A DNA stretch of 64,000 nt from Lama glama. Lineage: Eukaryota. Below the pieces are notes generated by a model. It worked only from the letters and a program-made list of their open reading frames with translations, made no database searches and was not told the origin of the DNA. Below, piece after piece: positions 18,390 to 40,970 of the stretch (the first letter of the stretch is position 1; each line of letters starts with the position of its first letter). The stretch covers positions 33,296,001 to 33,360,000 of the forward strand of contig CM052816.1 in assembly GCA_028534125.1 (NCBI GenBank). The letters are read 5' to 3'. A program made the position numbers and the translations under genes.

Positions 18390-20008
18390 ATATTGAAGTA
18401 TAGTTGATTTACAATGTGTTAATTTCTGGTGTACAGCATAGTGATTTATTTATATATATATTTATAAAATATGTATACATTCTTTTTCACATTTTCATTA
18501 TAGGCCATTATGAGGTATTGAATATAGTTCCCTGTGCTACACAGTAGGACCTTATTGTTTATTTTATATATAGTAGTTAGTATCTGCAAATCTCAAACTC
18601 CCAATTTAATCCTTTACCACCCCTCCTTCCCCCACTGGAAACTGTAAGTTTGTTTTCTGTATCTGTGAGTCTGTTTCTGTTTGTAAACAAGTTCATTTGT
18701 GTCATTTTTTTAAGATTCCACATATAAGTGACATCATGTGGTATTTTCTTTCTGTTTCTGGCTTACTTCACTTGGTATGATTATCTCCAGATCCATTCAT
18801 GTTGCTGCAAATGGCATTATTTTTAATGGCTGAGTAGTATTCCATTGTATATATATACACCACATTTTCTTTATCCAGTTGTCTGTTCATGGATATTTAG
18901 GTTGTTTCCATGTCTTGGCTATTGTAAATAGTGCTGCTATGAACATTGGGGTGCATGTGTCTATTTCAATTAGAGTTCCCTCTGGATATATGCCCAGGAG
19001 TAGGACTGCTGGATCAGAGGGTAAATCTATTTTCAGGTTGTTTTTTGTTTTTGTTTTTGCGTGTAGCAAAAGATTTTAAAAGATTTATTTAAAAGGAAAG
19101 GAAAAGTACAGTACCAAGAATGGGAGGCAAGCTGATCCAAGGAAGGAAAAGCGGCGTTTTCCTCTCCCCTTTCTCTTATGCTCTCGCTTAGAGGTGGTCT
19201 CTTGACTGATTGACGGCTCTTGTCCCTGGAATGCTTAGTCATCTTTGGGCCCTTCTGCGCATGTCCTTAACCATGGTGTACACAGAAACACCCATGGTGG
19301 GTGGGGGTGGGGTGGGTGGGGCTAAACTGCAATGTTAATTATAATACAATGAACACTGGGTCCTGTCCCATTAAGTCCTTTCTGCTACCCTGTAGTTGTG
19401 GCTGTCAGGTTTAACCAGTTTTTTGTTTTGCTTTGCTTTTTTTTTCCTTTTACTTGTTTGTTTGTTTTTGCTAGCACTCATTTAGAAGAAGTAAAGTCCC
19501 TTTATGCTGGAGGCGGGCATAACACCATCTTCTGGACAATCCTCCCTTTCCTCCACCTATTAAGGACTCTCCATACTGTTTTCCATAATGGCTGCACCAA
19601 ACTACATTCCCACCAGCAGGGTAGGAGAGTTCTCTTTTCTCCACACCCTCTTCAGCATTTATCGTTTGTGGAATTTTGAATGATGGCCATTCTGACCTGT
19701 TTGAGGATACCTCATTGTAGTTTTGATTTCCATTTCTCTGATAATTAGCAATATTGAGCATTTTTTCACATGCCTATTGCCATTTGAATGTGTTCACTGG
19801 AGAAATGTTTATTTAGGTCTTCTGCCCTTTTTTTAAAAAAATTTATTGAGTTTTAGTCAGTTCACAATGTTGTGTCTTCTGCCCATTTTTTGATTGGGCT
19901 GTTTGTGTTTTTTGTTATTCAGTTGTATGAGTTGCTTGTATATTCTGAAACTTAAGCTCTTGTCAGTCTCATCATTTGCAAATATTTTCTTCCATTCCAT
20001 AGGTTGTT
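18390..20008 (-). mobile_element. Lineage-specific L1 3' fragment (ORF2 end + 3' UTR) carrying two nested insertions
   Basis: Minus frame gives [44 protein letters not shown] (L1 ORF2 C-terminus); the L1 text is interrupted at 19037-19560 and 19828-19873. Confidence 0.85.
19037..19560 (-). mobile_element. ERV-derived insert: PPT + U3/R part of an LTR + decayed polyA tail
   Basis: Minus strand shows purine tract AGGTGGAGGAAAGGGAGGA (19558-19540), then TG at 19538, an LTR-like body, AATAAA (19089-19084) and an A-rich tail (19059-19037). Confidence 0.6.
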
Positions 20009-21858: not shown

Positions 21859-22804
21859 ATATAAGCAGCTCATATAACTTAACAAACAACCCAATCCAAA
21901 AATGGAAGAAGACCTAAACAAGTAATTCTACAGTGAAGACATACAAATAGGCACATGAAAAATTGTTCAATAGCACTAATTATCAGAGAAATGCAAATCA
22001 AAACTACAATGAGGTATCACCTCACACCAGTCAGAATGGCCATCATTCAAAAGTCCATGAACGATAAATGCTGGAGAGGGTGTGGAGAAAAGGAAACCAT
22101 CCTGCACTGTTGGTGGGAATGTAGTTTGGTGCAGCCATTATGGAAAACAGTGTGGAAATTCCTGAAAAAACTAAAAATAAAGTTACCATATGATCCAGCA
22201 ATCCCGATCTTGGGTATATATCTGGAAGGAACTTCAATTAAAAAAAATACATGCACCCTAGTGTTTCTAGGAGCACTATTTACAACAGCCAAGACATGGA
22301 AACAACCTAAATGTCCATCAACAGATGACTGGATAAAGAAGTTGTATATTTATGCAACAGAATACTACTCAGCCATAAAAAATAATAAAATACTGCCATT
22401 TGTAGCAACATGGATGGACCTGAAGATTGTCATTCTAAGTGAAGTAAACCAGAAAGAGAAAGAAAAATACCATATGATATCACTCATATGTGGAATCTAA
22501 AAAAAAAAAAAAGGACACTATGAACTCATCTATAAAACAGAAACAGACCTGCAGACATAGTAAACAATCTTATGGTTATCAGGGAAAGGGGGTGGGAAGG
22601 GATAAATTTGGGAGTTTGAGATTTGCTAATGTTAGCCACTACAAATTTCTTCTGTAAAGCACAGGGAACTATATTTAATATCTTGTAATAACCATTAATG
22701 AAAAAGAATATGAAAATGAATATATGTATGTATACACACGACTGGGACATTGTGCTGTATACCAGAAATTGACACGTTTTAACTGACTATACTTTGTTTA
22801 AAAA
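21859..22804 (+). mobile_element. 5'-truncated L1 (ORF2 C-terminus + 3' UTR)
   Basis: ORF 21955-22500 = [23 protein letters not shown]...[17 protein letters not shown]...; TSD AAAAGGATGTAGAAGAAT (21841-21858) / AAAAGGATATAGGAGAAT (22805-22822). Confidence 0.9.
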
Positions 22805-25299
22805 AAAAGGATATAGGAGAATTTCATGGAATCTGAATATAGAAAACAGAGCCTGGCCTTAAAGAGATTCATTTAAACACAGCCTTGGGTTTTTGAGATA
22901 CGGCAACAAAAGAAATAGATGGTTCTCATATATGTCTTCTCCCCACGTATGTATAAATGGCCTACACCAAAAGCTGCTCCAGCCAGGCACAGAACTATCC
23001 CTGTCTCCCCATTACCTGGATGAAAACATTCATGTCCTCCTTCCTTCATAGCCTCACCTGGGATGTCCCCTCCCAACACCTACCTCTTCCTTGTTTTCAC
23101 CTGACTCCAGGCCATTGCTGGGCAAAACAAAGGAAGAAAGTGTTACAAGAGAAAAGGGGTCCTCTATTCCCTAAAAGCTCTTTCATCCTAAATGAGAGAA
23201 AGTCAATGCAAACCGACTTTTACAAAAATTATTGGATTATGTAAGTAAAATGTTCAGGATTAAATCCAGCTCTGGAATTTGCTGGGGGTCACTTTATAAA
23301 CTGCCCCAGCATCAACAGGCTTCCTACAGCAGGGATTTAATAAGTGTTTGTTGACTTGAATAAAGGCTATGAACTTCCCTGAGTCAAATTTTCTCAGTAT
23401 AGAATTGCTCATATTCTCTAATTTCAATATGTAAGGGTTTTATTTTTATTAATGTTGATATTTATTAATATTAACATTTAAAACATTTAATTAATATTCT
23501 TCAGTATGTAACATTTGATTTTCTTCTTGATTAAACAGAGTTTGGGGGACAGAATTTTTTTTTTAATCTTCAAGTAATTGGGGGTATTTGTACCTGCTTT
23601 TATTTTGTTTTTTATTTCTGGATGTATTACTTCCTGGCTGTAATAGTGGATATATTATTTCCGTGTTTTGGAATTTTTTTCAGTTTTTCTTCTTGAAAAT
23701 TCCTTTTTAATGTATTCAGTCTGATTGCAGTCAGGGCTTGGCAGAGAAGCTGTTTTTCCTCTTTAGGGTGACTTTCTATAGCTGGTCAAATACATTATAT
23801 GTCTCTTTTATGCTTGAAGTCTAGATGGAAAGCTAATTTCCATATATTCCAAACTATTTGGAGAGGGGACCTGTCTGCTGCCCTATATACTATGGTTTCC
23901 TTGTGAGTACAATCATAATAGAGCATACATTATCAGATTGTTATCAGGATTAAATGAGCTAATACATGAAAAATGATTAGCCTTGTGGCTTGTCCATAGT
24001 AATAATCCCTCAGTAATAACTTCAGATGATATTTTCTTTTTTCTGAACCTGCAGTTCAGAAAAAACCTGCAGTTTTGCTCTTTGTAGTATTCCACTTTGA
24101 CAGACATAGAGTGGTTTTGAATTAGCCCAACTTCTTTCTAACCAAGAAAAACATGGCAACAGATGAAGAGCAAAGGGCAAAGAAATAAAAACCTCTCTAC
24201 AGATATATGGCCTTTTACAGCAACCCCTCTCAAAAAAAAAAAGTCAAGTTGATTTTGTTTTAAATATATTGTACCAGATTCTGTGAGACAATATGCAGAG
24301 CTACTGAGCAATGTACCCACAGCTCAATTCTAATAATGAGAGATACTAATTTTCGACTTTTTTGTAATGGTTAATGGGGACTTGTCCCTCTCTACCATTC
24401 AACTATGTAAACTTTTCAGGCAGGGATTAGGCCTTTAATTTCTGGCCCTCACGTCTGTGCACAGGTAGGTGCCTGACAGAGAGCTGTGAAACACATTATG
24501 AGTTTCAGGGGGGTTAAGAGTTCCAGTTTTAGAGTCCAGCAGACCTGGACCACATTCCAGCTCAGCTGCTCAGAAATTAAGTAATCTGCCTTAAGATCTA
24601 TGCAAATTATTGTGTTTTTTGTTTGCATATCTCTATCTATATCTATGTCTATATCTATATATATCTTGAGATAGTTTGGAGTAGTGCTTTGGTTAAAGTT
24701 TTACATAAATCTCACTGAATCCACTTAGCCTTCCAAGGTAGGTGTGTTTTACAGATGAGCACATTTAAAGTAAACACCAAACAAATTATTATTTCTTTTA
24801 TAATTAAACAATGAGGTAAGATTTCAAAAATCTGCCAGTAATGACTAGCAAGTGGTGTTTGGTGATTCTTTTAGCGATGCTAATTTAAAACTTTATGAAG
24901 TATTATTTATTCTCAGCGCAAGCCTATCAAAAATGACTAATGGTGTAGTCTTGCAGTCCTTCCTACTCTTGGTTCTCAAACATACCCTAGTAAATGTAAT
25001 TTACATATACCTGATTTTTAGTTTTCAAGTTCGTCAAACATCCTATCATCCTATGGGTGACTTCACAGTCATTGGAAGAAATGTTACTCACCTTCAAATA
25101 GAAGAAAACCAGAACGCTTAGTAAGGCTGCTAAAGCCACCTGCACACCTCTCCTCTTCTCTATTTTCAAGGTTGTCGTCTGAACTCCCTTATCTGAGGAC
25201 AAACATTTGGTCAAAGACCAATTCACACTGTGGCACTGACTTTGTTTATATGCCTTTTCATACAAGGCTCTCAATCTGTGTCAAGGGAGGCCTCAGGAG

Positions 25300-26300
25300 A
25301 ACAAAGAGCCCGTCATCCGCGCACGGGCGCATTTTCTCTTTCATTTGACTTTTGGCCCTGGGAGGTGTAGTGCAGCTGCGGGATGCTAGACCTTCACAGC
25401 AGAGAATTTAAGCCAGCCTTATCCCTGACCGTCGTCATTAGCTCCTTATTTGTGTTCGTATTTTCCCAGCTGTATTTACTGCCACGAAGAATTCTTCCAC
25501 AATTAATTGGCCACGGGCCACCCTGTCTGAGGCAAACCCACACACGCAGGTGGCCAGGTTTCAGCCCGCCCACACTCCACGCGGAATCAGTCCATCTTCC
25601 GGCGACCAATCAGCACTCCGCACGCTGCCGCGCCAGCCAATCCAAGAGAACACACGTTGCTCCTGCCAACTTCTGCCCCTAGCCCCGCGGAGCACCGAGT
25701 TCGAGCCGGGGACGTGGCTGGGGGTTCGGCCCGCTTTTCCCGGAAGAGCTTGAGGCCTTCCAATTGGCTGAGACTGGTAACGGCTTGGCACCCATTGGCT
25801 GCTGCCGCCCGCGGCCGCGGAGGCGGGGAAGCCGACAGCGCTCTAAGTGATGAGCTGGAAAGCAGTGAGTATTGTGTGTCTGTCTCGCGTGCGCCTGAGT
25901 CCGTACCTCTGCTCGCTTCACCTCAGGTAACAGTGAGTAGTGGCATGGAAGTGAGACGGCCTGGCGGGAGGACATCAGGGGCGTCTTCCCCGAGCCGTTC
26001 CGGGCTGTGGGTGAGGGAGACAGGGTGGAGGTCCGGGATGGCTGAGCCGGCTGCGGGCGGGTGTGGACCTCACAGGTGAGAGAGAAGTCGCCGGGGAAGG
26101 GTCGCGCTGGAGGATCCCAGGGCTTGCACCTCGCCTCTCTAGCCAGCTCACCAATGTTAGGACGCCGATTAGGCCTCTGTTACTCCATCTGTTAAATGGG
26201 GGAAGGCGGGTAATAACCTCGCCTCGGTGGCCTCGGTGAAGATTCATAGAGATCACGTTCTGTGACGGGCACGGTGCTTCTGGTTCTTAGTGGATGCACA
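25300..26300 (+). promoter_or_regulatory. STARD4: STARD4 CpG-island promoter with GC box, SRE-like and multiple CCAAT elements
   Basis: CpG-rich; CCCGCCC at ~25565, ATCAGTCCAT at 25586-25595, CCAAT at 25606, 25637 and 25760, ATTGG at 25506, 25763 and 25794. Confidence 0.8.
25830..26075 (+). other. STARD4: STARD4 first exon region (5' leader) with alternative donors; TSS not determinable
   Basis: Donor-like sites CA|GTGAGT (25865), AG|GTAACA (25927), CA|GTGAGT (25933) and AG|GTGAGA (26076) downstream of the CCAAT cluster. Confidence 0.55.
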
Positions 26301-28018
26301 GACAACAGAAGGTCCATCCCCTCATACCAGGCCCTGACGGAGTTGTTGATGACAAGGGCAGTGTTTTCCAGGTGCTTACTGTCTTCCAAGTTCAGTACTA
26401 AATGTATTAACTCTTGTGATTCCTCAGTAAGTTAGTGTTGCTCTAATTTACAGTTAAGAAAGATTACCTGAGATTCTGTAGGTTCAGGAGCCAGGACAAA
26501 ACGCGACAAACTCAATATGATGTCAGGTTTTTAATGTAAAGTCTCTTCCAGTCTGCGATCGGCTTCCAGTGTTTTGCCCAGTAGACCTTTGGTCTCTGAA
26601 GGCAGAGGTCCTGGATTGGAATTCTCTCTTCATCACTTATTAGCTGTGATCTTGGACAAGTGACAATCTCCTCATTCATACTTTCAATTTCTGTAAAATA
26701 TAGATAGTAGAATTGGCTCTTTAGGTTGTTTATGAGGGTTAAGAGAAATAATACAATTTAAAGTGGCCAGAAAGACTGATCACTTAGTAAACGATCAATA
26801 AATGTTAGCTATTATTTTTAATAAAAGATTAGAGCATTAGAAGCTTGAACATTAGCTTAGACTTAAACTTAAAGCTGTGACATTATTAAAATTTAACATT
26901 GTCTTAACAGTTGTAAAATGTCTCAGTGGTGTTGTAAAGCCTGTCCTAAAATAAGTGGAAGTGAGCCCTGAATCAGGAGTATTAGTCCCACTGCAGAAGT
27001 AGGCTTCCCTGTTACATTTCTGCTACAACCGTTGTTAAACCTTGACTGAATTGGAAAGGCTAAATTACCAATTCAAGACTGACTGAAAATTAAGTATATG
27101 CTGCAAAATTTTTATGTTAGGTAGAAAATATAATTTAATTTACAAAGCCTTGGTTTGCACATCTTGGGGAACATCTGAGGCATGTTACATTGAAGCTATT
27201 CACATAAATGAAACCCATATCAATCAGATAATGGAAGGTTAAACAGTTCTGATGTGAGCTTCTTTAGTAAGTGAATTCTGACTTAATCATGCTACATAAC
27301 TACAGGTATTTATGGCATTCACTTTTTATTAGAGGTTAAAACATTTATTATGTTAAATACTTAAATAGAACCTATGGTCATTTCACTGACATTTAACAAA
27401 AAATGGAACAAAGACTGGTCAAAGACTCTGGTGCTGACAGAGGATCTCAAGAAAAAATTTTAACTTGTGAAAGCTGTCCACTCTCTGATGGCAGCCACTG
27501 TCTACATGAGTGATCACTTTAAAAACAAGCATAGAAAAGATGAACAAAAAGGTTAGTTTAAAGTAAGGAAAAAATAAAGGTAACATTACTCAGCACGTGG
27601 CTATAGAGTTGTCAAGAGTGTATAACCTTTTATAAAGAGCTATTAGATTCTGATATAGTTAAATGGTACCTGTTTTCTCTGATGTGTAAGTTGGAGTTGA
27701 AGAGTTTCCTAATAGAAGGGCAAGAAGGAGAATAAAAGAAATAGAGAGATAAAGGTATTTAAAACATTTCCTGATGTTCTCCACAGATGGAGATCGCAGT
27801 AGGGCATATTTTGTGCTTTCTTTTCAACTAATGTGACTGCCCTGTTACATTAGGAGAGCACCAAGACCTGCCCCTAACCCCTGCCTTGGTTCTGGAATAT
27901 ATTTTGAGAGATGCTCTGTCTTGCCTGCCCACACACGGATTTCAGTTTAGACAGTAACTGTTATTCCTTTTTGGATTTAATCCTGATGAAAAAAATCCAT
28001 GCAAGAATTAACTGCCTG

Positions 28019-28673
28019 CCATTATGGAAAACAGTATGGAGATTCCTTAAAAAACTAAAAATAGATCTAACCCTATGATCCAGCAATCCCACTCCTGGGC
28101 ATATATCCAGAGGGAACTTTAATTTGAAAAGATACATGCACCCCAGTGTTCATAGCAGCACTATTTACAATAGCCAAGACATGTAAACAACCTAAATGTC
28201 CATTGACAGATGACTAAAGAAATTGTGGTATATTTCTACAATGGAATACTACTCAGCCATAAAAAATAAAATAATGCCATTGCAGCAACATGGATGGACT
28301 CAGAAATTGTCATTCTAAGTAAAGTAAGCCAGAAAGAGAAAGAAAAATACCGTATGATATATCACTTATATGTGGAATCTAAAAAAAAGACAAATGAACT
28401 TATTTACAAAACAGAAACAGACTCACAGACGTAGGAAACAAACTTACGGTTACCAGGGCGGGAAGGCGAGAGGAAGGGATAAATTAGGAGGTGGAGATTT
28501 GCAGATACTAACTATATAAAACAGACAATTTCTTCTGTATAGCACAGGGAACTATATTCAGTATCTTGTAGTAACCTATAATGAAAAATATGAAAATGAG
28601 TATCTGTATGTATATGTAAGACTGAACTATTATGCTGTACACCAGAAATTGACATTGTATTTAAAAAAAAAAG
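28019..28673 (+). mobile_element. 5'-truncated L1 3' end
   Basis: L1 ORF2-end/3' UTR text, A tail, and a perfect 15-bp TSD AGAATTAACTGCCTG (28004-28018 / 28674-28688). Confidence 0.9.
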
Positions 28674-29862
28674 AGAATTAACTGCCTGGTTAAATACTTT
28701 ATTGAGCTAAAAGAGAGCTTTCCAAGATTATACTTACTTTGCTCCTTTTCCTACCTCCAACTCTACCACCTCTAAAGAGGCTCATTAATAGGAATTTTTA
28801 ATGTTTTTCTTATTGTTATTGAATTCAAAGTTTATTTAAAGGGTAGAATAAGTCAACTTTGAGACCAGAGGCTGGATTACATCCATTTCTATAGTTCTCG
28901 GACCTGGTATATAGTAGATGCTTGGTAAATAAAATAGTAGACCGCCTTGAGAAATTGTTGTGTTTCATTATGGTAAGGGAAGTTTTGGTCATTCAGAAGC
29001 TCAAGGATGATTGGTGTAAACAGGCCCACCTTAGATATCTTGAGATCTTCCATTAAGTGAGACCAGTAGCTTACTGTCTACCAATTTTCTGCTTTTTTAT
29101 TCACTGGGTTCCTACTTCATCGTAGACATAAGGAGTGTAAAATTGAACAAGTCACATTTCCTGCCCTCAAAGTTTTTACAGTTAAATGGGAGAAGTTGAC
29201 AGGTGAAAATTATAGTATAGAGTTGCCAAGAGAAAACACTGGAGTGGGAGCTAACATAACCTTTACGGGAGTCCAGGAGAAGACGAGTAGAAATTGGACA
29301 GTAAGCTCTGCCAAAATGTAAAAGGTCCATAAGCCATATTAAGGAATTTGGACTTTATACTAACCTGTAGGAGTGAATGATAACTAAGCTAAACACCTTA
29401 AAGATTTAGATTCTCATCTTTACAGGTAGTTTTTTTTATTACTTACTTTTTGTGTGCTAGATTTGCATAAAGATAATGTTATCTATGCTAACAGTACCTT
29501 TCCGTCTTATCTGTGATTTCTATCAAAGAGTTTTGAAAAAATACTCTTCCTGCCAGCCACAGGAACCTGGCGGGCGACCTTTGCATTTAAAGACTGTTGT
29601 TTAATCATAATGATCCCAGTAATTTCTTTTGCAATTCCTAAGAACTCATGCTTGTTTATAACATACCCTTAAATAAGGTCATTGTATGGCTGTCTTTTCA
29701 GTGGAATGGGGAGATGTTCCTGACAGGCAGACTTTTTGAATGAGCTCATCCACTTTTAGTCTATGGGTAGGATCTATACTTTCTGAACATTTTGCATCAC
29801 TTATATAGATCCTAAATTCTATATTATTGAATTTTCTTTCCATATATACTGTCCCAAGTTTC

Positions 29863-30430
29863 TGAAGGGATTTGCCACCCCAAAACATGCTATTTTGGGA
29901 TAAAGATTACTTTGAGCTGAAGGCAATTAAGCAGCAGCAAACGCAGAAAGCACTGTTTTCACTTCCACTATCTGCCTGAAAGTAGGATATCAATTTCCTT
30001 TTGTGAAGGTCTTCCTTTTACCCTCTCTTATACCAGGAGAATAACAGCTATCACTAGAGACAGAAGGGTGGCATTGAGATGGTCTGCACAAACTTTACTA
30101 AAATAGCCCTTCTCTTCTATTAGTTTCTTCCCATATATTTGTCTTCCCATAATTTACCAACCCTAGAAGCTTAAACTCCTTTCCCCTTGTCTTGTCATTT
30201 CTCCACCATTTATCACCCTTTTTTAAAATGGTGTATAAGCTCGTGGAAATAATTGCTTCTTTGGGTCTCCAGTTGTTTTCTCTGAAGGCCTCCTTGCATA
30301 TAAAAATTAAAATATAGCATCAAATAAACTTTGTCTTCTTCTGTTAATCTATCTTTTGTCAATTTAATTTGCAGGTCCCAGAGAGAGAACTAAGAGAATA
30401 GAGGAAGGGTTTTTTTTTTCCTTCCCTGCA
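29863..30430 (+). mobile_element. ERV1 solo LTR (MER34-like)
   Basis: gccaccccaaaacatgc...tttgagctgaaggcaatt 5' motif; tctgttaatctatcttttgtc...ttccttccctgca 3' end. Confidence 0.7.
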
Positions 30431-30682
30431 CTTCTGTATCATTTTAATGTTTATCATGTTTAATGCCTTATATGCTCTGCTTTGTGCTATTTAAATATTG
30501 TTTATAGCACTGATTTATTTTTGTCACCTTAGTTTTTAGATCAGTGGTTCTCACTCCTGGCTGGATAACAGAATGATCAGTGAGGCATTTTAAAGGACCT
30601 AGATTTCTGGGACCTACTCCAGAACAGACCCACTGAATCAGACTATCTGGCTGCGGGCCCTGAAATCTAATATCCAAAACAG

Positions 30683-31095
30683 AGTCAAAGAAAACCAGAG
30701 GCAGGTGGATGTTAAAGTGGTAAAGGTAAATCTTATTCAAGAACTATTGTGAGAGTGGAAAGAAACATTGGTATTGCGTTGGGCTCCATTCTGAATACAA
30801 CAAGGGCAACCAGGGGTTTATAGCAAAGGAGCAAAGTGGTGTCAGTGAATGGAAAATTACAGTGAGGAGACATTAGGATAAGAGAGATTTCACCCTAGAC
30901 CTACCTGACAGGATTGTTGCTGAAGGTAGGCCAGGGTGGTAAGACTGGGGATGAGGTAAGGAAATTTGAGGATAGGGGATTTTCACCAAACTGACTCAGC
31001 AGGAGTGGACTAAGGGGTCCAAGGACAGGCCCAAGAGCTAGGCCTAGTCCAAAGGGAGACTTAGAGGAGCCTGACCAAGGAGGGAGTCTTTGTCA
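30683..31095 (-). mobile_element. ERV1 solo LTR (MER31/MER67 group) nested in a MER5-type MITE (~30541-31170)
   Basis: aagaaaaccagag...ttattcaagaactattg...gaggagcctgaccaaggagggagtctttgtca; MER5-like cagtggttctca...cactgaatcagac lies to the left. Confidence 0.55.
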
Positions 31096-31957
31096 TCATT
31101 AGCAACTGCTACAAGTGCTAACAAAGGTGGTTCTGCTATATGCACCTGTAGCTGAGAATTGCGTTCTCATTCTCATAGAGGCTTGAGCCTTGATATATCA
31201 TTTGGATCTTTTCTTGATCTTCTCTTCAGTAGTAACTTGATGATTCTGTAAATGGACAACCTCCTTTAGCCTTTTACTGGAGAGTACCATGGCACCAAAA
31301 GGAGACAAAATTAAGACCACATAATTCATGTTTTGAAGCAAACACACTTCAACAAATATTAAGGGCCAACGGTGTTCCAGGAAGTGTTATAGTTGGTGGG
31401 GATATAGTAGTGAAAAAGGCAGACAAGGGGCAATGTCTCTATTAGTTGGGGACGTGGTGGTCAAAGAATAAAGTATAGTACAGCAATATATAAACAAGTT
31501 AATTTCACATAGTGATACACTAAGAAGAAAATAAAAGAAGGGTATAATAGTGATTTGGGGAAGAATGTAGTAAGGACAGGAAGTTTAAACTGAAGTTGTC
31601 ATTACAAGTTGTTACTATTCATGCTAAGATTTGGGATCTAGTAATTCAGGCAGAGAAATAATAGCAAGATAAAAGGCCCAAAGTCAGTGACAGCCTTGGC
31701 CTATTTAAGGTGCGGAAAGAAAACCAACTGAACATTGTAGACAATGGTATGTGATGACAGTGAGAAGTGGAATCTCCTAATTCCTATTAAGGTTGACTCC
31801 AAGGCTTTTGATTTTGAGCAGCTGGCTCAGTTACCATTTTAATAGTAAAATTATTAAGATGAGGAAGACTGAGGCAAATTGAAGGAAGCCTGGGGAAGCA
31901 AGAGATGCCCATTAGGCATGAAGTTCTAAATAGGCTTCTTGATCTGGGACTTGGATC

Positions 31958-31980
31958 TGTGTGTGTGTGTGTGTGTGTGT
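31958..31980. repeat. (TG)11 microsatellite
   Basis: Seen directly. Confidence 0.9.
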
Positions 31981-33040
31981 CTGTCTCTGTCCCTTTCCCT
32001 CCCCCTTTTTTCCTCCCTTCCTCTTCTTTCCACCTGGGTTTTTCCACACATCAGCCTCAGGAAAACCATATTTCTTGTACGCCTACACTTTGATCAAAGG
32101 CTCCCAGAGCGATTATTCTAAGAGAAACCTACAGAGAATGCACAGATTTTTCTAATTTAACTGTGGAAGTCATGCAGCATCACAGACTCCACCTCTTGAT
32201 GGGAAGTGTGTCAAAGAATTTGCAGCAATGTTTTAAAACCATCATATTATAGACTCTCTCATTATGTTAATCTTTCCAGGTTAGTAACCATTTCCCTTTA
32301 AAAGTACTGTTGAACAGTAGCTTGTATTTGGAATTATTAATGATATAGTACTTTCCTCTTTATAGTTAAAATTATAAACTACTTATTTATGCTGTGCTGG
32401 TGGTTCTGGAATCTTCATCTGAATTCCTTCCTTACACAGATACCTCACTGAATCATGTAACACTTCATCAAATGATATAAAATACTGAAGACAGTGGAGT
32501 TCTCTAAACTTTTGAAATTGTTCAGAGTTCTGTAGCCCTATCCTTAAAGGATATGAGAAGAGGTTTCCAATTGTGCTTGTCATTTGTTTGCTAGAATGAG
32601 TCCTATATCTACTAGATGGTAAAATGAAAATTTTCAACTACTGACTCTCTGAGGACTTTAAAAAGAGTTTATGCCTTGTGTATTATTTTTGTATTTTGGA
32701 AAGAGATATATTTTTTAAGTTATCTGGAATTTTATAATTTATTCCTTTTGCTTAGATTTTTATTAGAAAGAGAAATAAGATGGTATTTTATTTCTTATAT
32801 GAGTTAATTTAAAACTCAAGATATGTGATTCTTGTCCCTGTATGTCCCACACCTTAGAAACTTTTATTAAAATAAACCTATGCCCAGGTTCTACCCTCAG
32901 AGATTCTGACTGGTTGATTTGGGGTGGGGTCCAGGTATAGGTGATTCTATTATGAAGACAGATTTGAGACCCACTGATGTACTGAATCAAACTGTGGTAT
33001 TTGCAGTTGCTAATCTTAGTTTCTGTAACAGGAAAATCAA

Positions 33041-33145
33041 ATGGAGAGCCTGCCTGATGCAGCTGTTTTGGCAACTAGACTGAAAAACACTCTCATACAG
33101 TACCATAGCATTGAAGATGATAAGTGGCGAGTTGCTAAGAAAATG
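33041..33145 (+). CDS. STARD4: STARD4 (StAR-related lipid transfer protein 4) coding exon 1
   Basis: Acceptor aacag|G at 33032 and ATG at 33041; [35 protein letters not shown]; donor GTAAGT at 33146. Confidence 0.95.
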
Positions 33146-34080: not shown

Positions 34081-34130
34081 AAAGATGTAACGATTTGGAG
34101 GAAACCTTCAGAAGAATTTAATGGATATCT
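34081..34130 (+). CDS. STARD4: STARD4 coding exon 2
   Basis: ttctag| KDVTIWRKPSEEFNGY(L) |gtaagc; 50 nt. Confidence 0.95.
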
Positions 34131-37261: not shown

Positions 37262-38388
37262 TTGGTGGGGGAGGGATAAATAAGGAGTTTAGAATTATCA
37301 GATACACACTACTATATATAAAATAAACAAAGACCTACTGTATAGCACAGGGAACTATATTCAATACATTTTAATAACTGATACTGGAAAAGAATCTGAA
37401 AAAGAATATATATATAAATGTAACTATGTAACTGAATCACTTTGCTGTACACCAGAAATCAACTATACTTCACTTTAAAAAAGTATTTAAGTCTGTGTAA
37501 AAATATGCATATACCTAATTATTAGAGAAATGCAAATCAAAATCACAATGAAGTATCACCTTACACCAGTCAGAATGGCAATCATCAAAAAGTTTACAAA
37601 TAATAAATGCTGGAGAGGGTGTAGAGAACAGGCAACTCTCTTCTACTGTTGGTGGGAATGTAAATTGGTGCAGCCACTATGGAGAACAGTCTGGAGGTTC
37701 CTTAAAAAACTAAAACTAGACTTACCATATGATCCAGCAATCCCTCTCCTGGGCGTATATCCAGAGAAAACTCTTAATTCAAGAAGACACATGCACTCCA
37801 GTGTTCACAGCAGCACTATTTACAATAGCCAAGACATGGAAGCAACCTAAATGTCCATCAGCAGATGAATGGATAAAGAAGATATGGTATGATATGTGTA
37901 TGTGTGTGTATATGTATATATAATGTTGCAATATATATAACTCAGCCATAAAAAAGAATGAAATAATTCCATTTGCAGCAGCATGGAGGGACCTAGAGAT
38001 TATCATACTAAGTAAGTTAGACAAAGAAAAGACAGATATTGTATGATATTTCTTATATGTGGAATCTAAAAATCTAAAAAAAAAATTATACAATGAATTT
38101 ATTTCCAAAAAAGAAACAGACTTGCAGACATAGAAAACAAACTATGGTTACCAAAGGGGAAAGCAGGGGGAGGGGTAGATTAGGAGTTTGGGATTAGCAG
38201 ATACTACTATATATAAAACAGATAAACAACAAGGACCTACTATATAGCACAGGGGACTATATTTAATATCCTGTAATAAACTATAATAGAAAAGAATCTG
38301 AAAAATTATATATATATATAAACTGAATCACTGCTGTACAACAGAAACTAACACAACTTTGTAAATCAGCTATAGTTCAATTAAAAAA
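37262..38388 (+). mobile_element. Two tandem L1 3' ends (37262-37482 and ~37515-38388)
   Basis: Both contain tatagcacaggg(a/g)actatatt...aaagaatctgaaaaa...actgaatcac; the second encodes [21 protein letters not shown]...YDPAIPLLG. Confidence 0.85.
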
Positions 38389-38738: not shown

Positions 38739-38865
38739 CTTCAAAGCCCAAGGTGTTATAGATGATGGTGTCAACAATATAATAGACCATATACGCCCAG
38801 GTCCCTGTCGCTTGGATTGGGACAGTTTAATGACTTCATTGGATATTTTGGAGCATTTTGAAGAG
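38739..38865 (+). CDS. STARD4: STARD4 coding exon 3
   Basis: ctccag| (L)[42 protein letters not shown] |gtattt; 127 nt, phases consistent. Confidence 0.95.
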
Positions 38866-39694: not shown

Positions 39695-39809
39695 AATTGC
39701 TGTGTGATGCGTTACACTACTGCTGGTCAGCTTTGGAATATAATTTCCCCAAGAGAGTTTGTTGACTTCTCCTACACTGTGGGATATAAAGAAGGGCTTT
39801 TATCCTGTG
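39695..39809 (+). CDS. STARD4: STARD4 coding exon 4
   Basis: ttccag| [38 protein letters not shown](G) |gtaatt; 115 nt. Confidence 0.95.
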
Positions 39810-40740: not shown

Positions 40741-40970
40741 GGATAAGTCTTGACTGGAATGAAAAGAGGCCAGAATTTGTTCGTGGATATAACCATCCCT
40801 GTGGTTGGTTTTGTGTTCCTCTTAGAGACAATCCAAATCGGAGTCTTTTGACAGGCTATATTCAGACAGATCTGCGTGGGATGATTCCTCAGTCTGCAGT
40901 AGATACAGCCATGGCAAGCACTTTAATCAACTTCTATGGTGATTTACAAAAAGCCTTACAAAAGGCATAA
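40741..40970 (+). CDS. STARD4: STARD4 last coding exon (spliced CDS 627 nt, 208 aa)
   Basis: ttgtag| (G)[80 protein letters not shown] domain C-terminus. Confidence 0.96.

Follow-up and report, generated by a model that had tools for sequence, protein, structure and literature searches.

Upstream AUG codons can open reading frames that end inside the coding sequence (CDS) or frames that continue into it. In the class counts of Zhang et al. 2021 (PMC7889888), out-of-frame overlapping upstream open reading frames (oORFs) represent 14% of the upstream AUGs and AUG-initiated N-terminal extensions (NTEs) 2%, and both classes are described there as depleted by purifying selection. A frameshift between two start codons that removes the longer isoform only is described in Ly et al. 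2025 (PMC12718117). The cholesterol-transfer gene STARD4 shows a related difference between species. Mouse StarD4 is 224 aa long (NP_598535, PDB 1JSS) vs. 205 aa for human STARD4; the extra residues are present in the databases and absent from the crystal model, which covers residues 24-222 only according to PMC10232897. Here, we analysed STARD4 and its upstream ATG codons in a stretch of 64,000 nucleotides (nt) of Lama glama DNA (GenBank assembly GCA_028534125.1, contig CM052816.1, positions 33,296,001 to 33,360,000 of the forward strand), hereafter the window. All positions are those of the window.

The main result concerns an ATG at position 26038, in the longer form of the first exon (exon 1b). 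We consider it probable that this ATG is an old upstream start, originally in frame with STARD4, that the loss of one base in camelids made it the start of an overlapping upstream open reading frame (uORF), and that murines later lost the original start codon (Met17 of the mouse numbering). The locus resembles the two classes of PMC7889888, as the open reading frame (ORF) of the upstream AUG ends inside the CDS in the camelid and continues in frame in whales and murines. It differs from those class counts in that one orthologous AUG falls into both classes, switched by one-base insertions or deletions (indels) that flank an intron. The likeness to PMC12718117 lies in the frameshift between two start codons; however, that work deals with disease alleles of isoforms with targeting signals, whereas here a lineage seems to have altered a rapidly evolving tail that has no known function.

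This is no new class of element, and apparently a clear example of known processes that has not been described so far. Our literature search, which left most subscription papers outside its reach, gave no account of the origin of the mouse extension, of whale or jerboa counterparts, or of a double loss of Met17. No STARD4 row was found in the supplements of PMC10032668 and PMC4940163, and the accessible part of PMC3204063 holds nothing on the extension. The locus is a compact case of start-codon movement: the same upstream AUG would add an in-frame extension while the old start persists (rat, whales), be the sole AUG start after loss of the old one (Mus and Apodemus, probably independently), and open an out-of-frame overlapping uORF in the camelid. 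It accounts for the 16 N-terminal residues of the mouse protein used in StarD4 biochemistry that are absent in human, and it leads us to expect that one STARD4 transcript isoform is translated differently between species. In camelids, the overlapping uORF probably dampens the gene.

An overlapping reading frame upstream of STARD4

The + strand of the window carries an intact STARD4 gene, whose coding exons join into a CDS of 627 nt (208 aa) with zero internal stops. The product is a START-only protein closest to STARD4 (197/208 identical residues with orca, 186/205 with human), and its matches in PDB are STARD4. Exon 6 is 99% identical to the Camelus dromedarius protein, as expected of a camelid gene.

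The upstream ATG (26038-26040) has a strong context, with G at -3 and G at +4. When 26075 is joined to 33032 by coordinates, an ORF of 29 codons results. Its start lies 47 nt from the main ATG (38 + 9), i.e. out of frame, and its stop (TGA, 33081-33083) lies inside the CDS, 42 nt beyond the main start. These coordinates bear out the ATG, the donor at 26076 and the 29-codon ORF one base out of frame with STARD4 that a preliminary description of this DNA had given. Its inventory of ATG codons was correct for 26038 but incomplete: another strong-context ATG in the same frame (25945) and two donors that bypass 26038 (25927 and 25933) had been overlooked. By its sequence, the window element is therefore an out-of-frame overlapping uORF and not an in-frame, stop-free NTE, a state found in the whale, murine and jerboa models. 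The position of the stop is, to judge from the models, incidental, as it is unconserved and the mole model P0235 has Leu there.

A strong-context ATG is expected often in such a GC-rich stretch (1973 of 5000 shuffles), and the case therefore depends on orthology. What exceeds chance is, as far as the models go, the fit to the whale, murine, jerboa and elephant proteins. The same frequency would suit an exon 1b that is neither transcribed nor spliced in camelids, with an ORF existing only on paper, as would the presence of two donors further upstream and the use of exon 1a by the human canonical transcript. However, of the three donors listed for 25700-26300, the one at 26076 comes closest to the consensus, and its orthologue ends the whale, elephant and mouse models; we regard a silent exon 1b as very improbable. 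A word search of sequencing runs gave no evidence of expression: six runs, of undefined kind, shared 0.86-1.00 of the words, 14 RNA or guessed-RNA rows shared 0.18, and four further rows were unindexed raw reads.

Orthology with the mouse start exon

The preliminary description relied on a given N-terminus of mouse StarD4, with Leu where other mammals have the start Met. Both points were right: the sequence given equals NP_598535 (P0027), and Leu17 of PDB 1JSS aligns with Met1 of the window protein. We then aligned extension peptides with both strands of the window (protein-to-DNA alignment), which yields 127,882 alignment ends and 1358 sites that have an upstream ATG and are followed by GT. 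With nine murine peptides summed, position 26075 ranks 65th among the 127,882 ends and first among the 1358 ATG..GT sites, by a small margin. A harringtonin table from mouse myoblasts (PMC4482065 supplement) has an initiation peak at the annotated Stard4 ATG. According to the same supplement, position 37 of the mouse CDS (codon 13) is AGG and lies 36 genomic bases from the ATG, i.e. the two are contiguous; this peak, labelled "coding", served for exon geometry only and not as a start site. The geometry of the mouse start exon thus matches 26038-26075. In addition, when the reading of the Lemmus model P0013 is shifted by one base, it agrees with 23 of the 24 bases of rat codons 1-8; for the two rats, 0 and 2 of 150 shuffles reached this match.

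ATG 26038 and its donor are very probably orthologous to the mouse start exon, as had been proposed, given the first rank of the murine sum among the ATG..GT sites and the initiation at the mouse ATG in the ribosome-profiling table. A tblastn search with the murine peptides against 24800-26500 gave no match.

One base fewer than in whales and elephant

Gene models from six cetacean species, toothed and baleen, start with a 16-residue extension. The orca extension matches 38 of the 38 window bases plus one added base, with the best gap at 26053 and 0 mismatches, and its peptide places 26075 first among all alignment ends, by a wide margin. With this additional base, the whale spacing is thus 39 + 9 nt. 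These whale models rule out an in-frame state confined to rodents, which the preliminary description had suggested.

In the elephant model P0261, the orthologous first exon is followed directly by exon 3. The final 13 residues of this first exon follow the whale register, 8 being identical and the other five one base apart; over 24 residues compared with the window, a one-base gap leaves 16/72 mismatches vs. 26 without a gap, and 0 of 300 shuffles did as well. The Lemmus letters in codons 6-8 also fit the whale register better (5 of 6 fixed letters vs. 2 of 6 ungapped). As the outgroup elephant shares the base with whales, the camelid state is probably a deletion. The 38 nt of the camelid are most likely derived, a one-base deletion having turned an in-frame start into an overlapping uORF. 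This direction is most likely the opposite of the one first proposed, in which the camelid had preserved the ancestral state: one base common to the elephant and whale models is missing from the window.

Contrary to our reading, the base might be missing through an error of the assembly, or as a private variant in a G-rich stretch; camelids would then have the whale-type in-frame extension. The position falls in a short run of G/C within a CpG island, 3-6 of the 44 words sampled from 25700-26150 are missing, at undefined places, in five of the six high-share runs, and no full-length RefSeq camelid isoform is among the listed cluster members. Yet one run has all 44 words (although it is possibly the source of the assembly), the CDS is free of frame errors, and a search with the orca N-terminus, among cluster representatives only, gave no camelid protein of 224 aa. 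An error or private variant is therefore, in our estimation, very unlikely.

A third version of the 16 residues, built from 35 + 13 nt, is found in the jerboa model P0287, which ranks seventh among the 127,882 ends and first among the 1358 ATG..GT sites. This model belongs to a diverged gene copy, possibly a retrocopy, that shares 189/203 residues with the main jerboa protein when the two are compared without gaps.

We also tested 14 long ab initio N-termini by protein-to-DNA local alignment. Only orca was far above shuffles; a modest excess was seen for pangolin, reindeer and sea lion, and the rest were at null level. As this local alignment is too permissive, a weak wolverine reading (same donor, no ATG) was dropped. 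Metagenome contigs were scanned twice for STARD4 DNA of mammals: one scan gave 0 matches, and the other 184 pattern hits of which 0 were confirmed.

Frame change and loss of Met17 in rodents

We compared residue 17 in nine murine species that carry the 16-residue extension: three have Met, four Mus species have Leu and two Apodemus species have Ile. The extension and Met17 occur together in Rattus norvegicus, Rattus rattus and Grammomys, and a Mastomys isoform begins at this Met, which is thus retained. The cricetid models read R-K-I-K-Met, and model P0142 reads in from the intron, fixing the leader of exon 2 at 10 nt with an intact ATG. Because Met is kept along with the extension in rats and Grammomys, and along with a 10-nt leader in cricetids, the extra base predates the loss of Met and is independent of it. 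The order of events in rodents is accordingly, in these models, one of two steps, the frame first and the loss of Met later. The mechanism of the preliminary description, in which one inserted base brought the ORF into frame and abolished the exon-2 start at the same time, is ruled out by the retention of Met17 alongside the extension.

The phylogeny of PMC2490707 places the Mastomys tribe as sister to Mus and puts Apodemus outside this pair. Therefore, Met17 was most simply lost twice, probably independently and by substitution, to Leu in Mus and to Ile in Apodemus.

Two observations touch on other starts. Codon 8 of the Lemmus model P0013, orthologous to 26059-26061, is xGA vs. TGG in murines, a possible stop that might close the extension into a short cricetid uORF; the listed cricetid RefSeq proteins mostly start at the core Met. 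The aardvark and Eptesicus models (P0028 and P0274) have no core Met (Ile and Val, respectively) and could represent further start shifts, pseudogenes or model errors.

Leader length and ancestral frame

The leader of exon 2 has 9 nt in the window and, as deduced from protein models outside it, in whales and ruminants. A human leader of 9 nt agrees with a row of the PMC6528255 supplement, with the exon boundary deduced. Protein models imply 10 nt in muroids, ferret and pangolin, and 13 nt in the jerboa copy. In the simplest account, the artiodactyl ancestor probably had 39 + 9 = 48 nt and was in frame.

We considered whether the ancestor was instead out of frame (47 or 49 nt), rodents and whales each gaining the frame by separate one-base indels and mice losing Met17 later. 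Such repeated gains would retain the earlier idea of a captured uORF without the single insertion. With the 10-nt leaders of pangolin, ferret and muroids, 39 + 10 = 49 is a possible ancestral spacing, and murines and camelid both have 38 nt. Of the 182 stored proteins whose core start is recognisable, a set that includes non-mammals, 21 have the extension, 131 have none and 30 have other leaders. However, 38 nt is not the placental state, since elephant and whales share the extra base, and the 9-nt leader common to camelid, whales and ruminants makes an in-frame artiodactyl ancestor probable. Even with an ancestor at 49 nt, the camelid remains derived. Separate gains of the frame in rodents and whales are, on this evidence, unlikely.

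The base at -3 of the main ATG is C in the window, in whales and in ruminants (from the encoded Gln), A in muroids and G in the human row; with a weaker main start, initiation in whales would shift towards the upstream ATG.

Constraint on the extension

Between mouse and rat, 11/16 residues of the extension are identical vs. 202/208 in the core (Fisher p 0.0003). A constraint on the extension like that on the rest of the protein is rejected on this comparison, which suggests that the 16 residues are a weakly constrained passenger. The comparison of orca with three baleen whales (16/16 in the extension, 207/208 in the cores) is uninformative on constraint.

More speculatively, the frame alone could have been under selection, to avoid repression, while the peptide drifted. 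Compensating indels on either side of the intron would then have held the spacing always at 48, Mus and Apodemus would each have handed initiation over to the upstream start, and the camelid deletion would have brought in an isoform-specific brake, through both translation and decay, on a cholesterol transporter. We hold this idea to be possible but rather doubtful. The protein database favours in-frame cases, which inflates the recurrence of 48.

Proposed mechanism

Under the reading that we favour, with an old in-frame start and a deletion in camelids, the upstream ATG of exon 1b would date at least to the ungulate-rodent ancestor. The frame would depend on two segments prone to indels, one G-rich and running from the ATG to the donor, the other the A-rich exon-2 leader. 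Their lengths sum to 48 in whales (39 + 9), murines (38 + 10) and the jerboa copy (35 + 13), giving 16 added residues each time. In the camelid lineage, the loss of one base near 26053 would have left 38 + 9 = 47. The camelid exon-1b transcript would then present one or two strong out-of-frame AUGs before a main ATG with C at -3, and ribosomes starting at 26038 or 25945 would read across the main ATG in another frame and terminate at 33083. As the ORF ends 42 nt past the main start, reinitiation there would be impossible. Nonsense-mediated decay follows from a stop located more than roughly 50-55 nt before an exon junction; at 62 nt, the stop lies beyond this limit and decay would be expected. 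The output of the exon-1b isoform would thus be lowered and the isoform exposed to decay, and exon-1a transcripts, which bypass 26038, would supply the protein. In murines, the in-frame upstream start would have made Met17 redundant and led to its loss by substitution. The sequence anatomy, the fit to protein models of orthologues, the order of the two steps in rodents and the initiation at the mouse ATG are observed. We infer the direction of the indel, from the outgroup protein model, the in-frame ungulate ancestor, and the splicing, translation, repression and decay of the camelid exon-1b transcript.

Several points weigh against this reading. The whale, elephant, jerboa and Lemmus evidence consists of predicted protein models. 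Taken one by one, the murine peptides fit weakly, with ranks from 2 to 1213 of the 127,882 ends, and the Lemmus test is non-significant for four of six peptides. The elephant has Val at the position of the whale start Met. The last seven murine and jerboa codons align ungapped to the camelid frame (6-10 of 20 mismatches), and rodents therefore need their own one-base loss further 3'. The leader length of the placental ancestor is tied between 9 and 10 nt, so that this ancestor may have been out of frame (49 nt); in rodents, the frame was either maintained by compensating indels or newly acquired. Finally, most of the other listed mammals are without the extension; as 15 members are listed per cluster, for clusters of up to 153, this absence is weak evidence.

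Exon 1a and other features of the locus

The features of the locus are given in Table 1. Upstream of exon 1a, between 25586 and 25800, lie several sequences that we take to be CCAAT boxes, and at ~25586 a decamer that presumably resembles a sterol element.

Exon 1a has two donors of its own. The pangolin model P0002 ends at the first (25927), and the row of the human canonical transcript in the PMC6528255 supplement fits the second, its boundary being deduced. With donor 25927, the exon-1a ATG at 25850 opens an overlapping ORF of 42 codons in the same frame as the 26038 ORF; with donor 25933 or 26076, it opens a closed uORF of 26 codons. The tandem donors, six bases apart, would thus switch the type of this uORF from overlapping to closed. 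A human table in the PMC4739776 supplement lists a translated uORF of 18 nt in the first exon, exon 1a, whose putative orthology to ATG 25850 is deduced from position alone.

Table 1. Positions of STARD4 features in the window
Feature	Position	Strand	Remarks
Promoter and first-exon region of STARD4, CpG island	25400..26300		GC 0.52-0.66, CpG observed/expected 0.57-0.93 (200-nt windows, starts 25400-26200)
Exon-1a ATG	25850..25852	+	G at -3, A at +4
Tandem exon-1a donors, GT at 25927 and 25933	25927..25934	+	Transcripts using them skip ATG 26038
Second strong-context ATG	25945..25947	+	Same frame as 26038, no stop between; overlapping ORF of 60 codons if transcription begins upstream
Exon-1b coding segment, 38 nt	26038..26075	+	Very probably the orthologue of codons 1-13 in the 16-aa extensions of whales and murines
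Site with one base fewer in the window than in whales and elephant	26052..26058	+	Orca gap at 26053; elephant gap at 26052 or 26056-26058
Exon-1b donor GT	26076..26077	+	Consensus at 6/7 scored positions; orthologous donor ends whale and elephant gene models
Exon-2 leader, A-rich, 9 nt	33032..33040	+	Exon 2 begins at 33032 after AG; leader length varies among mammals
Main STARD4 ATG and coding part of exon 2	33041..33145	+	C at -3, G at +4
TGA stop of the overlapping ORF	33081..33083	+	62 nt before the exon 2-3 junction; Leu in mole model P0235
STARD4 exons 3-6	34081-34130, 38739-38865, 39695-39809, 40741-40970	+	Part of the 627-nt CDS

Camel, mole and tree-shrew models (P0224, P0226, P0235 and P0272; 33081-33145 of the window) skip exon 3. 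In these models, exon 2 is read in the uORF frame and forms the N-terminus of a shorter START protein.

Extra STARD4-like copies were seen in jerboa, deer, musk deer and opossum (P0030, P0136, P0206, P0214, P0280 and P0287); if they are retrocopies, they would be a record of old spliced 5' ends. Finally, intron 1 contains an interspersed repeat of ~640 nt (28018-28660), with copies at 18410-19042, 22134-22774 and 37673-38353 that are 75-81% identical.

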